Part shown: positions 134 through 21,743 of the stretch, piece after piece
How positions within the stretch are numbered: the first letter of the stretch is position 1
Layout: each line of letters opens with the position of its first letter
Assembly (NCBI GenBank): GCA_000442015.1
Contig: KE561064.1
Span: 1 to 58,027, forward strand
Direction: 5' to 3'
Length of the DNA: 58,027 bases
From: Rozella allomycis CSF55
Lineage: Eukaryota
The notes under the pieces: model-generated
What the model was told of the DNA's origin: nothing
Database searches by the model: none
The model's input: the letters and a program-made list of their open reading frames with translations, nothing else
Program-made: the position numbers and the translations under genes

Positions 134-858
134 ATGCGTTTTTTCTCCTTGATTCTAGTAGTTATAGTCTCTGTAGGATGCTTTCCTGAAGAAACTGGCT
201 TTGAAAAAGTACCCGATGATATTATTTACCACCTGTACAAGCTTCTTCCAATTCAGGATGCTCAGGCATTAAGATACTGCAACAAGAACTTTTGTAGCAA
301 GTTTCCAAAAGATTATATTAAATCTACAGTTCCCAAGCTTTTAACTTTAATATATCGTGACAAGAGACAAGATGTTTTAAGACTGCTATCTACGAAATTG
401 ACACGCAGCTTGATTATCAAAAAATCTAACAGTGCTATCGATCAAGTCATAAAATATTGTTTATTGACCTTTGAAGATAACTTTAATCGAATGATGGTGA
501 GGGATTTGGTTCTGATGTTGTTCGCATAAAACAAACGCTTTTGGAGTGTCGTTCTTTTTCAGAAATTGATTTATTTGAACAATACGACCTAAGACAACAT
601 GGATTTGAAGCATTTTGGAACTTTTTAGTATTGTTTCGAAATGAAGTAGAAAATATGGGTCTAATTAGGATTGCGATTGAGCAGGACGATATTGAAGCGT
701 TCAACAAAGCCATTGAAAGTTGCAAAGAGGCTGGTTACAAATTTAATGAAAAATCTCCAGAATTTACGTCTTTCATTGAAGAAAATGGGGCGGTCAATAT
801 TCAAGAGAACATTTTTGAAAACGGATATTTCGATGCATATGATGAAGAATATGAATAA
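134..858 (+). CDS. Signal peptide + F-box protein, split by a frameshift or unusual intron near 480-546
   Basis: MRFFSLILVVIVSVGC (signal-like) is followed by an F-box (FEKVPDDIIYHLYKLLPIQDAQALRYCNKNF). A second frame is open 487-858 (SNDGEGFGSDVVRIKQTLLEC...). TATAAATA lies at 74-81. Confidence 0.65.
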
Positions 859-877
859 AATGATATTAATATGGAAT

Positions 878-2617
878 TTATTTGCTAAGAACTTTTATAA
901 TTTCTTGTCTTTTATCGCTTGAAAGCTGGGAATATCGTATTATGTACTGTCGCAAGGTAATTCCACCATTGTATTCTTGGAAAAATGAAAATCTAGGATT
1001 ATGAGTTAGTAAAGCGACAAGAAAGTCTATTTTCGCACTGTTGATAATTGATTCAACTTGACTAACAGTAAGATTGACATTATGTTTCTTCAATAAACCC
1101 TTAAATACTGTCACGTCTCCTTCTTTAATGATTTCATTTAGGAGAATTTCTTCTGGTATTGATTTATGTTTAATTAAAAGATCAATAAACTCATGATTAT
1201 TTTGTATTATTCTTTTTAAAATTGACTTGTCAACTTGGGGGTTTATTAAAAGAAGTTGATTGAATGCATTAATAATATTATTTTCAATAGCACAATCTAT
1301 GGCGGCATTGAAATCTATGAGCTCTCTATTAATGGTGTCTCTATAATCGTCAATTATATCGGCTTTCATCATTGTGCACATATCCTTTATATTAATGCTA
1401 ACATTCCATTCTTTCAAAATGTAGTTAATAATAACTCTCAGTTTCAATTCCATAGACCATTGAAATATGTTTTGTGCTTCAAATTCTGTAAAAATACCGA
1501 CAGCCTTTTCAAACACGGGAATCTCATCAAGTTGCATCAAAGCTTTGAAATGAAATTGGTCAAGAAATCCTTTCTTGTATAAATATTCATTAATAAATAT
1601 ATCATTAGAATCAAATGCCCTCAATATTAATTGATATTGAGAAGAAAAATCAAAGTTTTTGAATACAACTTCCAAAGTATTATGATTTTGATGTTGAAAT
1701 AAATATGTCGGTAAATTAATAAATTTTGAATAATCGATCTTGATTTTCTTCATAAAATATTCAGCCAATTTCGCAGAATTTACTTTAATGCTGAATTCAG
1801 CGTGACTATACAAAAGTTCACGTGTAAAGGCATAAATATTTTGAAGATATTTATAAATCTTAAGGGCATCCATTTTCAAAACCACGTGAATGATGTCATA
1901 AATGTCATGTGAATCATCGGTGTACTGAAAATCTAGAATGGTATTTTGACTTTTCTTCACTAAATACTTAAAAACAGCATGAGCATCATTTTTAATTGCA
2001 ACTTCGACAAAAGAATATAATTCCTTCATAAATACTTTCCTTGTTAAATGCAGTCTAGCAAACTCTTTGAATAATCTCAAATAATCACCTTCAATTATTG
2101 AAATAAGGATTTCCATGATATCGTTCGTAAAATATCTATCAATAAGAAACGTTGCTTCGTTCAATAAATGATTATTTTCTAGCATAGCGTCAATAATCTT
2201 CATAAGGGGAATTTCAAATTCAACAGTTTCTTTTACCAATTCGTCAAGCAATGCGTGATTATTTAGGCAATGAAGATATAACTTCAAAGTGGAATTCAGG
2301 TCGTTCTTTCTGAGAATATGTCTACGTGAAAGTCTAGAGTTCAAAATATTGTTAGCCTTTTCTAGTTGTCGAGTTTTAAAGCAAAAATCTAAGTATTCGG
2401 ATGCAAGACTCGTGTGATCTATTCTAAAATTGCTGTTAAGCTGTCTGCTACACGATCTTAGTGCTATTGAATTTTCTACAGGTAAGTATCTATAAATTTC
2501 ACTGATAATTTCATTTGAACAACTAAGAAGACTGGCCTTTTGATTTTTTAATCTTTCTAATTCAGAACATCTAGTAAAAGAGATAAAGAAAATCAATAGT
2601 GAAAAAAGAATTTCCAT
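878..2617 (-). CDS. Signal peptide + F-box + degenerate ankyrin-like helical repeat protein
   Basis: ATG at 2617, MEILFSLLIFFISFTRC, then an F-box (LLSCSNEIISEIYRYLPVENSIALRSCSRQL). Repeated 'AIKNDAHAVFKYL / AIENNIINAFNQLL / IIKEGDVTVFKGLL' units follow. Intronless. Confidence 0.7.
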   Translation of the reverse strand: MEILFSLLIFFISFTRCSELERLKNQKASLLSCSNEIISEIYRYLPVENSIALRSCSRQLNSNFRIDHTSLASEYLDFCFKTRQLEKANNILNSRLSRRHILRKNDLNSTLKLYLHCLNNHALLDELVKETVEFEIPLMKIIDAMLENNHLLNEATFLIDRYFTNDIMEILISIIEGDYLRLFKEFARLHLTRKVFMKELYSFVEVAIKNDAHAVFKYLVKKSQNTILDFQYTDDSHDIYDIIHVVLKMDALKIYKYLQNIYAFTRELLYSHAEFSIKVNSAKLAEYFMKKIKIDYSKFINLPTYLFQHQNHNTLEVVFKNFDFSSQYQLILRAFDSNDIFINEYLYKKGFLDQFHFKALMQLDEIPVFEKAVGIFTEFEAQNIFQWSMELKLRVIINYILKEWNVSINIKDMCTMMKADIIDDYRDTINRELIDFNAAIDCAIENNIINAFNQLLLINPQVDKSILKRIIQNNHEFIDLLIKHKSIPEEILLNEIIKEGDVTVFKGLLKKHNVNLTVSQVESIINSAKIDFLVALLTHNPRFSFFQEYNGGITLRQYIIRYSQLSSDKRQEIIKVLSK

Positions 2618-2866: not shown

Positions 2867-4429
2867 ATGTCGTCAGATTCGGATTACTTTTATGAAGAAG
2901 AAGATAATGCAGAAGATGACTTTTACGATTCTACTCATGACGATTATGATCACTTCAAAGAGGCAAAACCAGAATGGCAAGTAGACTTTAAAGTTTTGTC
3001 GGCCCAAACAATAGAATCCATGCTTGGGAAAGAGATAACTCAAATTTCAAGTATTCTAGGTTTAGACACAGAGATGGCAATAATACTCTTGCGATACTTT
3101 TCTTGGAACAAGGACAAGACCATCGAAAGGTATATGGAAGATCCAGAAAAGGTTCTAGTTGATGCAGGCATTAAAGATGAATTCGCGCAGCCAAAAATAA
3201 TTTATATAGATAATTTCGAATGTCCGATATGCTGCGTTATCAAAGAAAAAGCAGAGGCCTTTGATTATTGTGGAGAACATTGCTATTGTACACAGTGCTA
3301 TTCTCGATACTTGACTACTAAGATAGTAGACGAGGGGGAAGCTCGGAATCTCAAATGTCCTGGCGGATGCAAATTTGTTTTGAATGATAAAACAGTCAAG
3401 CTATTGGTGAGTAACGATGTGTACACAAAGTAACAGAGTTTTCACAACAGAAAATAGATATGAGATTATGCATCTTAGACATTTTATTTCAGATTTGGCC
3501 AATATTAAGTGGTGCCCAGCCCCTAATTGTGATCATGCAGTGGAATGCCAATTATCTTACTCTACAAAAGCAAAATTGATCCCAAATGTTTTGTGCTCAT
3601 GTGGATTTTCTTTTTGCTTCAACTGCCTTCTTTCAGATCATCGACCTGTACCTTGCTCCATTCTAAAAAAGTGGATAAAAAAGTGTTCAGATGATTCTGA
3701 AACTGCCAACTGGCTTTCTGCAAATACAAAAGAGTGTCCAAAGTGCCAAGCAACTATAGAGAAGAATGGTGGCTGTAATCACATGACTTGTAAAAAATGT
3801 AAACACGAATTCTGTTGGATCTGCTTGGGTGATTGGTAAATATAATTTTGTTAACCCATCAAAGGAAAAAACATGGCACCACGTATTATGAGTGCAATTT
3901 ATTTAATGAAAGTGAGCATTCGGCTGTATTAGATGCTCAATCAAGGTCGAGAAAGCAATTGGAGAGGTATCTTCATTTCTATACTCGGTACATCAATCAC
4001 GAGCAAAGTATCAAGCTGGAACACAAGTTAATGGAAAAACTTGAAAAGAAAATGGAAGAAATTCAACAGACAACAGAATATTCATGGATCGAAGTACAAT
4101 TTTTCAAAAGGGGGTTAAACGTTTTAACGGAGTGCAGGAATGTCTTAAAATACACTTATGCTTTTGGTTATTACTTGGCTAGAAATAATTGGACTCTGAT
4201 ATTTGAAGAAAATCAAAAAGATTTGGAATTAGCAGTGGAATGCCTCGCAGAATTGTTGGAGAAACCCTTAAATGTACAGGAACTTTCACAGTTAAAGCAG
4301 CAAATTTTGGATAAATCGGTTTACGTGGATTCTAGAAGAAAAATTCTTGTAAACGATACTGCAAAGGGTTTGTTTGAAGATAGGTGGGATTACTTACCGA
4401 ATGAGGAAGGGAGTATCAGTAATGTATAG
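2867..4429 (+). CDS. Ariadne-family RBR E3 ubiquitin ligase (ARIH1/Hel1-like)
   Basis: Acidic N-terminus, RING1 (CPICC), IBR (WCPAPNC), RING2 (KECPKCQATIEKNGGCNHMTC) and Ariadne domain. Introns 3430-3457 and 3836-3864 restore the frame. Confidence 0.95.
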
Positions 4430-5499: not shown

Positions 5500-6231
5500 A
5501 TGTTTAAAAATTATCTTGCTCTGTTGGCACTAAGCTGTATAAGATCTAACCCAGTTGCTTCAAATGATTCTGTAGAGTTTCGCATATCAGAAAACCTGGA
5601 TTTGAAATCTAGTGATGGTTTTGCTGTGTTTGGTGACAAGGCTAAATTCCTTGTGGCTGTTAAAGACGCCAAGCTGAAAGATTATGAGTTTTCTTATGGT
5701 GGCAAAGATGTAAAGTTGATGGCGAAAGATGATGTTCAAGGAGAGTTCGAAGGTGAGATTACGCCTGAATCTAAATTGGAATACAAGCATCAAGAGAAAG
5801 GAGCTGGATCTGTTAGTCTTGTTGATGATGTGCATACTTTACTCAGTCTCAAGTCGGCATCTAGTTCACAGGTTCTCGAAGACGGTGTTTGGAAGGTTGA
5901 TTTTGTAGCTGACTGCAAACAACGAAAAGAAATCTTTGGCGATTGGTTGATTGAGAATAGCGTCATAGCGGAAAACAAGAACTATTGTGATGGATTAAAA
6001 CATGACTACAAAGTAGAAAATGATACACCTGTTCTAGGCCTCTCCTTTCAACATGGAAATCATAAAGAGATGGTGGAGACTTCTGTTGATCTTTCAGGAT
6101 TGTTCAGTGGTTTTAAAAATATCTTAATCATGGCTGTTATTGCACTAGTATTGATTATTGCCCTTTTCTGGGCTTGTTGTTGCAAAGGAGCATGTTGCAT
6201 TTTTTCATTGTGTAAGAGAAGAAAGATATAA
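5500..6231 (+). CDS. Type I membrane protein with Cys-rich cytosolic tail, paralog 1
   Basis: Signal peptide, ~185-aa ectodomain, TM segment (ILIMAVIALVLIIALFWA) and tail CCCKGACCIFSLCKRRKI. Clearly paralogous to 12174..12923. Confidence 0.85.
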   Translation: MFKNYLALLALSCIRSNPVASNDSVEFRISENLDLKSSDGFAVFGDKAKFLVAVKDAKLKDYEFSYGGKDVKLMAKDDVQGEFEGEITPESKLEYKHQEKGAGSVSLVDDVHTLLSLKSASSSQVLEDGVWKVDFVADCKQRKEIFGDWLIENSVIAENKNYCDGLKHDYKVENDTPVLGLSFQHGNHKEMVETSVDLSGLFSGFKNILIMAVIALVLIIALFWACCCKGACCIFSLCKRRKI

Positions 6232-6256: not shown

Positions 6257-6958
6257 TTATTTTTTGTTTCTTTTTATCTTGTTGAATCCAAGGCAGCTGG
6301 ACACTGTTGTAGATTGATACCCAGATTTGACGACCAATTTCATAACTTCGTCTAATATTTCAATGGACTTGCTGTTGTCTTCAAGCATTAGCACGATAGA
6401 CTTTTCTGTTATTCGATTTTTCAATTCTTTGAGCACCTTTTCCGTATAGTTTGTTTGAGAGTAGTATTTCCAATCCTTCGCATCTTGTGACCAGCCAATC
6501 ACATGATAATTTTGGCTTCTTACAAAGTTAAACACGGGTTGGTTTATTTCACCATATGGAGGTCTAAACAGTCTGGAGGTGCCATTAATTTTCTTTAGCA
6601 TTGCGTCCATCTTTTTAAAATCTTCCTTCATCTTTTTGATGGGCATGTCAACATAACTTTTGTGGGAATAAGAATGATGACCTATCTCGTGGCCTTTACC
6701 AATGGCCGATTGGATTATCCCGGTTGCATTGACCCCCATTGTTTTCATGGACTTACCTAACAGGAAGAAAGTGACTTTATGAGTATTGTACTTGGTTTCT
6801 AAGAGAGAAAGCATTGGCACCATAAATTTGCGTGGACCGTCGTCGATGGTGATTGCCACTGTGTTATTTTGACGGCATTTTCGAATCGATAGTCCTGATG
6901 GCAGGAATGAATTTTTGCAAGAGACTAGACAAATGAAGAAGACGAAGACTAGGAACAT
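6257..6958 (-). CDS. Secreted CE4/NodB polysaccharide (chitin) deacetylase
   Basis: TIDDGP, HHSYSH, FRPPYG and DAKDW motifs plus a signal peptide. Motif 5 reads IVLMLE, with no His. Confidence 0.9.
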   Translation of the reverse strand: MFLVFVFFICLVSCKNSFLPSGLSIRKCRQNNTVAITIDDGPRKFMVPMLSLLETKYNTHKVTFFLLGKSMKTMGVNATGIIQSAIGKGHEIGHHSYSHKSYVDMPIKKMKEDFKKMDAMLKKINGTSRLFRPPYGEINQPVFNFVRSQNYHVIGWSQDAKDWKYYSQTNYTEKVLKELKNRITEKSIVLMLEDNSKSIEILDEVMKLVVKSGYQSTTVSSCLGFNKIKRNKK

Positions 6959-12173: not shown

Positions 12174-12923
12174 ATGTTTAAAAGTTATCTCGCCCTTTTA
12201 GCACTAAGCTGTATAAGATCCAACCCAGTGGCTCCAAATGATTCTGTAGAGTTTCGCATATCAGAAAACTTCGATTTGAAATCTAGTGATGGTTTCGCCG
12301 TGTTTGGTGACAAGGCTAAATTTCTCGTGACTGTTAAAGACTCTGAGATCAAAGATTATGAGTTTTCTTATAAGGGCAAAGATGTCAAGTTGATTGCAAA
12401 AGACAATGTTCTAGGTGAATTTGATGGCGATATCACAATGGACCCGGATTTTAAACTGGAAACTAAGCTGGAATACAAGCATAAAGAAAAAGGAACTGGA
12501 TCTGTTATTCTAGTTGATAATGTGCATACGTTGCTCAGTCTCAAATCGGCATATAGTTCACAGAAGCTCGAAGGTGGTATTTGGAAGATTGATTTTGTAG
12601 CTGATTGCAAACAAAGAAAAGAAATTTTAGGAAATTGGTTGATTGAAAACAGCGTCATAGCGGAAAACAAGAACTATTGCGATGGATTGAAACATGAATA
12701 CAAAGTAGAAAATGATACACCTCTTCTAGGTCTCTCTTTTCAACATGGAAATCATAAAGAAATGGTGGAGTCCTCTGTTGATGTTTCAGGATTGTTCAGT
12801 GGTCTTAAAAAGATTTTGATTATGTCTGTGGTTGCACTAGTATTGATTATTGCCCTTTTCTGGGCTTGTTGTTGTAAAGGAGCATGTGGTATTTTTTCAT
12901 TGTGCAAGAGAAGGAAGATATAA
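12174..12923 (+). CDS. Type I membrane protein with Cys-rich cytosolic tail, paralog 2
   Basis: Aligns end to end with 5500..6231, with a 6-aa insertion around MDPDFK and the same upstream sequence. Confidence 0.85.
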   Translation: MFKSYLALLALSCIRSNPVAPNDSVEFRISENFDLKSSDGFAVFGDKAKFLVTVKDSEIKDYEFSYKGKDVKLIAKDNVLGEFDGDITMDPDFKLETKLEYKHKEKGTGSVILVDNVHTLLSLKSAYSSQKLEGGIWKIDFVADCKQRKEILGNWLIENSVIAENKNYCDGLKHEYKVENDTPLLGLSFQHGNHKEMVESSVDVSGLFSGLKKILIMSVVALVLIIALFWACCCKGACGIFSLCKRRKI

Positions 12924-20816: not shown

Positions 20817-21743
20817 ATGCGAACAACATCTTTCTCCATACTTGCGTTATTTTTCTCCAAAGCTCAATTACAGCAAATTGTGTACCCTACAGATGTAATA
20901 AGTGCCCATATGGCATTACCGGCTTCTACTTTCGCTCCTAACGCGAAGGGCCTTTTTAGCAGTTGCTTGACGTTCAATAAGCTAGCCCTGACATTTGATG
21001 ACGGGCCTGATCCGTAAGAAATAGTTATTATTTTAACCAGAACAACTACTCCGCTAATATTAGACTACCTCAAAACCTCAAGTCTCAAGGCCAATTTCAT
21101 GGTTCAAGGCAGTCTAGCCAAGCAATATCCCGACATTGTGAAGAGAATTGTGAATGAAGGTCATTTTATAGCAAGTCACGGATGGAACCACACTAATTAC
21201 ATGACGCTATCCTCAGCCGCCATCATCAGCGACCTCACTGCGGCAAAGCAAGCAATTTCTAGTGCATCAGGTGTAGAAGTTGCGTTTTTCAGGTTCCCAT
21301 ATGACAACTACAATGACACTTTGGTTGATCTCGTAGCCAGCCAGCATTACGCAATAGTGATGCACAACGTAGATTCCCTGGATGATCAGTACTGGAACGC
21401 TGCACAAACAACAACCGAAGTCATGACTGCTGTTGAGAAACTGGGAGTTCTAGGGCCCGTCATTCGAATGCACGACACCGTAATTGAAACTGCGAATACA
21501 CTGCCTGGACTTGTGCCGCAACTGATCGGCAAGGGATACAAGTTTGTTAAAATTGATGAATGCATTGGATTGGCTAACAGCACTGTGACGAATACTTCTT
21601 TATTGCCACCTGCACCAGCGCCTACAACTGCGGCACCAGTGCAACATGAGAGCAACAAGGTTATTACTAATTCGGCGGCATCGTATACGCTTTATGGAAC
21701 GACTATTGCTTTTGCAATGTTCGCGGCATACCTCTTTATGTAA
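20817..21743 (+). CDS. GPI-anchored CE4 chitin deacetylase
   Basis: Signal peptide, LTFDDGP, SHGWNH, FRFPY, IRMHD, a Pro/Thr-rich linker and a hydrophobic C-terminus. Intron 21014-21040. Confidence 0.92.

Follow-up and report, generated by a model that had tools for sequence, protein, structure and literature searches.

A family of leader-bearing F-box genes in Rozella allomycis: candidate exported adaptors of host ubiquitin ligases

Several parasites and pathogens produce F-box proteins that engage the Skp1 of their hosts, and two genes of the endoparasite Rozella allomycis appear to encode further candidates. The two genes, A and B, lie at positions 134 to 2617 of a 58,027-nucleotide stretch of DNA from strain CSF55 (contig KE561064.1, assembly GCA_000442015.1), referred to below as the window. 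Judged by analogy, their nearest described counterpart would be the signal-peptide-bearing SSGP-71 family of the Hessian fly, Mayetiola destructor. In the passages cited here, SSGP-71 is a large family whose proteins carry an N-terminal F-box followed by leucine-rich repeats (LRRs), interact with Skp proteins of the host and presumably mimic adaptors of host E3 ligases (PMC4617103, PMC7330099). Hessian fly effector genes are described, in the excerpts available, as encoding signal peptides. The Rozella genes resemble SSGP-71 in being an expanded family of a eukaryotic parasite (25 places in the genome) that combines an export signal, an N-terminal F-box and a repeat domain, including ankyrin and LRR tails. 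However, SSGP-71 proteins have LRR tails only and enter plants with insect saliva, whereas the Rozella proteins belong to a parasite that lives inside fungi and end in ankyrin repeats, LRRs or a degenerate solenoid. In particular, SSGP-71 members have approx. 13 LRRs, Pfam finds no LRR in gene A or B, and no insect protein occurs among the nameable ones of 11 matches to a profile of the window genes and their closest relatives; an independent origin of the two families is assumed.

Bacterial and viral counterparts are more distant. The RipG/GALA proteins of Ralstonia are described in the cited text as paralogs with an N-terminal F-box and LRRs that bind SKP1-like proteins and require the box for virulence (PMC4617103); unlike the Rozella proteins, they are bacterial, are delivered by type III secretion and lack an endoplasmic reticulum (ER) signal peptide. 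According to the consulted part of the GogB study, Legionella AnkB, the poxvirus ankyrin/F-box (PRANC) proteins and Salmonella GogB join an F-box or F-box-like motif to ankyrin repeats or LRRs and engage host Skp1, and the boxes of the poxvirus proteins and of GogB are C-terminal (PMC3386239). These proteins are of bacterial or viral origin, and the box of the Rozella proteins is N-terminal, in contrast to the poxvirus and GogB boxes. Neither the poxvirus and Legionella ankyrin/F-box proteins nor GogB are known to carry an ER signal peptide. The Rozella proteins are members of none of the SSGP-71, GALA, AnkB, poxvirus or GogB families.

Closer in lineage are the microsporidia. The excerpt consulted on Nematocida displodere describes a family, NemLGF2, of 235 members, of which 152 have a signal peptide or an N-terminal transmembrane segment and 113 a RING domain (10.1101/047720). 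This family is likewise species-specific and expanded and pairs signal peptides with a putative ubiquitin-ligase module; it differs in that the module is a RING rather than an F-box and is C-terminal, and in that the host is an animal. Microsporidian host-exposed proteins in general are reported, in the text cited, to be enriched in signal peptides and in species-specific large families (PMC5423893). In the fungal plant symbiont Rhizophagus clarus, NLS_30765 is described in the cited portion as a protein that is predicted to be secreted, carries an F-box-like domain and is proposed to act upon the host Skp1-Cul1-F-box (SCF) ligase (PMC4746824); it is a single candidate with no family.

We consider it probable (approx. 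0.6) that the family of genes A and B encodes exported SCF substrate adaptors that act like SSGP-71 and GALA. The features of the locus are as follows:

134..529, forward strand: first open frame of gene A, 131 amino acids (aa), with leader, F-box and about three helices in common with gene B
134..181, forward strand: leader of gene A, residues 1-16, signal-peptide-like by the hydropathy rule only
200..319, forward strand: F-box of gene A, residues 23-62, with the Pro of the Leu-Pro motif kept
487..858, forward strand: second open frame by gene A, 123 aa between stop codons; past a frame break, it probably continues gene A on the 3' side
878..2617, reverse strand: gene B, a single open frame of 579 aa with leader, F-box and alpha-solenoid
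2567..2617, reverse strand: leader of gene B, residues 1-17, signal-peptide-like, in a region of low model confidence
2411..2530, reverse strand: F-box of gene B, residues 30-69, with Leu-Pro replaced by Cys-Ser; modelled on Skp1
881..2404, reverse strand: helical-repeat region of gene B, residues 72-579, ankyrin-like alpha-solenoid with a putative substrate-binding role

An earlier note on this DNA had described a convergent pair of related genes, and both points hold: the frames run tail to tail (134-529 forward, 2617-878 reverse), and the proteins are 26% identical over 74 residues (E 1e-7), an alignment that extends beyond the F-box and includes both segments quoted there. The family that the note proposed also exists outside the window. 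Paralog searches of the genome (11,859,274 bases in 1059 contigs; the window is contig C716) recovered 25 places on 14 contigs where a leader precedes an F-box; this number is a lower bound, and members missed by Pfam were added by the paralog searches. Tandem arrays occur on C723 (four genes), C93 (four) and C119 (five). The tails are of several kinds: Pfam Ank_2 matches all four genes of C723 (E 3e-19 to 4e-12) and LRR families match the tails of genes on C442 and C119, while Pfam gives no match for the tails of the window group (C716, C814, C47, C699, C752 and C817). Public gene models match the leader-bearing frames exactly for five of nine paralogs looked up and for P0003, and UniRef labels some members "F-box domain-containing protein".

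In these searches the family proved restricted to its lineage. A profile of the window group, run against 1.84 billion representatives, gave 11 matches, of which the best seven are from Rozella allomycis; of the other four, one is a double F-box protein without a name (E 1e-8) and three are weak matches (E 1.5e-4 to 7.7e-4). A single homolog of the gene B protein was found among 7996 scored candidates, and it is named Rozella allomycis. Of the 65 boxes found with PF00646, 62 were placed in a tree (three with a stop or too short were dropped); those with leaders are spread over several clades that have little deep support, and a single origin is accordingly neither shown nor rejected. A second, more uniform family comprises 26 leaderless F-box genes in which the box lies right at the start Met (for example on L017, L028, L033, L041 and L065). 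Strong Ank_2 matches were found in all five members scanned and a hidden upstream leader exon in none of the 26; this F-box and ankyrin family is a second, recent expansion.

The leaders were recognized by a rule that requires a best 10-residue hydropathy of at least 2.2 within the first 25 residues, in an uncharged stretch starting by residue 13. Genes A and B reach Kyte-Doolittle means of 3.40 and 3.25, with Cys at residues 16 and 17, respectively. The leader of either gene taken by itself is only modestly beyond chance, since 265 (A) and 142 (B) of 5000 residue shuffles pass the rule, and the fact that 22 of the 25 members pass it is no test, because members were chosen for having leaders. 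Across the genome, 17 of 65 PF00646 hits pass, compared with 13 of 628 internal methionines (p 2e-11). Hydrophobic leaders of 16-17 aa ending in Cys, which the earlier note had singled out, are indeed present in A and B, but the Cys does not mark the family, as it lies at positions 13-18 in only seven of 25 members. Nor does the F-box follow at once, as had been stated; approx. six (A) and 12 (B) residues lie between. The reading of the leaders as bacterial lipoprotein signals was dropped, a lipobox occurring in two of the 25 members, neither of them a window gene.

Such stretches could act as uncleaved membrane anchors, in which case the F-box would stay in the parasite cytosol and tether its own SCF to the ER, the mitochondrion or the phagocytic vacuole. 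This explanation makes a translocation step unnecessary and draws on the single Skp1 of the parasite itself, on which the box docks in the model described below, as well as on the 18-25 uncharged residues of some leaders. However, the hydrophobic core of A and B is only 13-15 residues long and is followed by small-residue (-3,-1) sites. The charge beside a hydrophobic stretch can be judged by the positive-inside rule: Lys or Arg occurs within the first five residues in 13 of 25 members, and the charge after the stretch ranges from -3 to +3 (median 0) with no consistent positive charge. This pattern appears more in keeping with cleaved signals than with anchors whose C-terminal part is cytosolic. 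Furthermore, a species-limited, tandemly expanded family would be unusual for a housekeeping function, and anchoring is therefore regarded as quite unlikely. In line with export, none of the 25 members has a transmembrane-like window after residue 35 or an ER-retention end of the KDEL/HDEL type, although some frames are incomplete.

In the F-boxes of the window genes, PF00646 matches residues 25-58 of A and 31-62 of B with 15.6 bits and E 0.015 each, below the cut-off of 20.5 (gene B scored 18.9 bits in the genome-wide search), whereas a profile of related boxes finds both (B at E 1.2e-5 and A at E 3.5e-5 among 2390 open frames). This profile was built from 16 leader-bearing boxes of the same genome, none from the window contig and one from a paralog of the A/B pair. 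The F-boxes claimed by the earlier note stand by the family profile and not by the general one. Where F-boxes begin with Leu-Pro, gene A has Val-Pro, and the Pro is kept in 23 of 25 members. In AlphaFold2, residues 35-63 of gene B form three short helices with a predicted local distance difference test (pLDDT) of 61-66, rising to 70-75 in a shorter model. Searches with the structure were less telling: the 303-residue model returned no F-box chain in 50 rows (best Z 7.3), the Atlas rows for residues 22-110 held no F-box-named cluster, Foldseek against the PDB gave no match at E<=0.001, and a PDB sequence search with the box reached Cyclin-F only at E 0.88.

The complex with Skp1, which had been suggested as a check, was modelled with residues 28-132 of gene B and the parasite's own Skp1. 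The pair scored 0.77 (best of three controls 0.02), three runs agreed in at least 85% of contacts with a partner pLDDT of 61-68, and the F-box was placed on the C-terminal helices of Skp1. Among microbial pairs, 51 of 78 solved and two of 108 mismatched ones reach the mark thus passed; among eukaryotic pairs, 71 of 105 solved and two of 126 unrelated ones do. Since F-box and Skp1 are a solved textbook pair, the pass may reflect memory and shows likeness rather than binding. It bears, nevertheless, on the possibility that the proteins are secreted but kept at the host-parasite interface or in the food vacuole, with boxes that are decaying relics and repeat regions that alone bind host proteins. 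The sub-threshold Pfam scores of the window group, the loss of Leu-Pro in gene B and its closest paralog and the lack of an entry motif would be in keeping with this. On the other hand, the box is the best-kept part of paralogs that are otherwise 20-30% identical, and the Skp1 model passes even for gene B; decay of the boxes is accordingly judged improbable.

The tail of gene B is predicted to form an alpha-solenoid (mean pLDDT 81.9, predicted TM score 0.63, from 11 aligned sequences). The degenerate ankyrin-like repeats seen in it earlier find no counterpart in Pfam, which reports no ankyrin even at E<=10, but ankyrin proteins head three model-based searches, and it is on these searches that the label "ankyrin-like" rests. 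Foldseek against viral models gave 35 matches at E<=0.001 (best 4.8e-5), the best of which are ankyrin proteins of giant viruses (mimivirus, pithovirus and pandoravirus), some named F-box and ankyrin. With identities of 10-18% and TM scores of 0.16-0.28, they share a repeat fold, and transfer is not indicated. A degenerate ankyrin-like alpha-solenoid is a fair lead for this tail, not a result.

In another reading, the proteins would be secreted decoys, which would tie up host Skp1 or block SCF assembly and bring no substrates; pure decoys would then be found among the short members, for instance in the 131-aa frame of gene A. There is a precedent in Salmonella GogB, which in the cited part of its description uses an F-box-like motif to bind Skp1 and inhibits the degradation of IkB (PMC3386239). 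Gene A would suit such a role, as its frame stops soon past the box in every contig that covers it, and so would several other short members and gene B without its Leu-Pro. Yet 15 of the 25 members are single open frames of at least 377 aa with repeat tails, and many diverged tails suit many substrates more than one target. Moreover, some of the short frames may be assembly breaks, because eight of the 25 members hold unresolved bases. On this evidence decoys are unlikely, and the exported adaptors proposed above remain the preferred reading.

A number of observations weigh against that reading. The leaders were judged by hydropathy and the (-3,-1) rules and not by SignalP, and the harder control, the first Met of other open frames, passes in nine of 71 cases against 17 of 65 F-box hits (p 0.052); several of the nine passing frames are, however, ordinary secreted proteins, and without the 26 hits of the leaderless family the comparison becomes 17 of 39 against nine of 71 (p 4e-4). 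A Met lies between leader and box in seven of the 25 members, which could hence give rise to cytosolic forms, although neither A nor B has one there. The Pfam scores of both window boxes lie below the cut-off, and the boxes of C723b-d and C47, at -0.9 to 9.8 bits, were counted by paralogy. Gene B, with Cys-Ser for Leu-Pro, is one of two members among the 25 without the Pro; in GogB, loss of the Leu-Pro pair is reported, in the portion cited, to have only a slight effect (PMC3386239). For the tail of gene B, the Atlas features place ankyrin proteins at 0.94-0.96 but with a recognition of 2160, under 2300; the top VIA row, ASB7 (Z 10.8, root-mean-square deviation 6.3, 226 residues aligned), lies below the mark of ~13 for repeats; and the viral Foldseek matches have the low TM scores given above (0.24 for the match with the best E). 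The Skp1 in the model is the parasite's own and not that of the host. Finally, gene A is interrupted by a frame break, the public 441-aa models of gene B begin at Met139, with neither leader nor box, and the public model of its closest paralog, P0008, likewise lacks the full start and begins at the box.

The last of these points would be expected if the leaders were untranslated, with starts further down or pseudogenes, and if the link of leader and box were a chance product of open frames; the 3-5% of single-gene shuffles that pass the leader rule would fit as well. Against this stand the 138 codons upstream of Met139 in gene B, which are open and 49% identical to the paralog on C817, and the exact public-model matches to leader-bearing frames elsewhere in the family. 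In codons 84-128, moreover, the variants carried by contigs from X1 and X2, two sequencing runs, split into five synonymous and three non-synonymous changes, where 79% non-synonymous would be expected (p 0.014; p 0.044 at an expectation of 72%). Untranslated leaders are thus very improbable, and gene B is likely a full-length adaptor. Diversifying selection was considered and rejected, as the 14 variant letters divide into seven synonymous and seven non-synonymous ones, which indicates purifying selection instead. Among 15 runs, none of RNA was listed as containing the sequence, a result without bearing on expression.

Gene A is more complicated. Judging from the open frames, it is probably longer than 131 aa, because the second frame runs from 487 to 858 and ends 19 bases from the stop of gene B; its alignment with gene B is not significant (E 0.06). 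The public model P0012 joins the two frames through a predicted 56-nt intron, which seems doubtful because the Skp1 intron of the parasite reads as 26 nt. The GT-AG options for an intron in gene A comprise eight of 38-149 nt and seven short ones (three of these of at most 32 nt), none with a GTAAG-type donor as in the Skp1 intron. No insertion or deletion was seen at the break in contigs of runs X1, X2 and X5, which are possibly the source of the assembled DNA, and X6, the only one of the runs compared that is not marked as such, does not cover it. Longer homologs of the first frame were found in none of 175 candidates. Gene A may be a short, spliced or decaying copy.

SCF ligases operate in the cytosol and the nucleus, so an F-box sent to the ER would be without a partner in the cell that makes it. 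Genes A and B are proposed to be two diverged members of approx. 25 signal-peptide and F-box genes of an endoparasite, whose leaders would direct the proteins into the ER and then be cut off. Secretion would follow over the unwalled parasite surface, and the proteins would then pass into the host cytoplasm. This entry step is the largest gap in the scheme: a search for host-entry motifs (RxLR, LFLAK and others) found none common to the 25 members. In the host, the N-terminal F-box would bind Skp1 and thereby join Cul1-Rbx1, and the variable C-terminal repeats (of ankyrin or leucine-rich type or, in the window group, a degenerate alpha-solenoid) would select host proteins for ubiquitination and proteasomal removal. 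The earlier proposal of exported effectors that hijack host SCF ligases thus gains from the existence of the family in a parasite living inside a fungus, the modelled docking and the lack of a second membrane segment or ER-retention tail in all 25 members, but the poxvirus and Legionella proteins named with it are not the nearest analogues.

The biology of Rozella offers a setting for such proteins. In the cited account, the parasite enters Allomyces by an infection tube, which pushes the membrane of the host inward, and then lives as a plasmodium without a wall, in a compartment that lies inside the cytoplasm of the host, where it engulfs host cytoplasm and induces septa (PMC6317583). Despite this remodelling, no Rozella effector was met in the literature searched, nor was the leader and box family, although subscription papers and supplements outside the search, a genome paper of the species among them if there is one, might report the expansion. 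More tentatively, a modular library of approx. 25 ER-exported SCF adaptors, which have tails of three kinds and lack a recognizable entry motif, may rewire the fungal host, for example in the induction of septa; a translocon might not be needed if host Skp1 were met in engulfed cytoplasm, and the 26 leaderless genes could belong to the same arsenal. This wider picture is possible but doubtful.

The strategy itself is already known; new are the setting of host and parasite, the use of the ER route by a relative of the fungi and the three types of tail. If the proposal is correct, F-box mimicry, met so far in bacteria, viruses and a gall midge, would also occur at the base of the fungal tree. 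On the wider and more doubtful picture, a parasite of fungi that is itself fungal would here have its first F-box effector arsenal in the literature searched and, taken together with the signal-peptide and RING family of Nematocida displodere, ligase mimicry would be a recurring strategy of the Rozella-microsporidia lineage. Exported ligase adaptors could serve as baits, as each tail should catch a host protein that the parasite removes, and such baits would map what a fungal cell uses against an intracellular parasite. The public models of gene B, without leader and box, conceal this architecture.

Several further features were noted at and around these genes. Part of gene B (window 1354-2396) has a second version, approx. 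95% identical, which occurs at lower depth in contigs of runs X1 and X2, and four of its changes match model P0001 from another assembly; it is either a collapsed partial duplicate or a haplotype. In run X5, a contig diverges to unlike sequence at window position 2436. In the closest paralog of gene B, on C817 (L002 1130-1459), only the end of the leader is kept and Leu-Pro is likewise missing; upstream lie an unresolved base and an opposite-strand frame resembling, by eye, a retroelement fragment, and the leader may be disrupted or misassembled. On C769 (L100 1345-2157), a gene related to the tails of the C723 genes has a signal-peptide-like leader and ankyrin repeats but no F-box. More leader-bearing unnamed genes adjoin F-box genes on L072 (128-1150, on C47), L012 and L040, which suggests local clusters of secreted-protein genes.

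Within the window, positions 1-39 hold a dispersed repeat of 37-40 bases, 95 bases upstream of gene A, with 14 genomic matches (several of them at the ends of contigs) and a word depth that is very high in X1 and X2; it is possibly the end of a transposon or a miniature inverted-repeat transposable element. Directly beside gene B, at 2867-4429 on the forward strand, lies a gene for a RING-between-RING ligase of the Ariadne/ARIH1 type (UBA_ARI1, E 2.6e-14). ARIH1 acts together with cullin ligases; the adjacency is probably due to chance. Two near-identical genes at 5500-6231 and ~12174-12923, both on the forward strand, have a signal-peptide-like start and no Pfam family over the cut-off, and the former ends in a hydrophobic segment followed by a Cys-rich tail. 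A gene of the polysaccharide (chitin) deacetylase type with a leader lies at 6260-6958 on the reverse strand (Pfam E 1.3e-22), and another of this type was recognized by eye at 21018-21740 on the forward strand.

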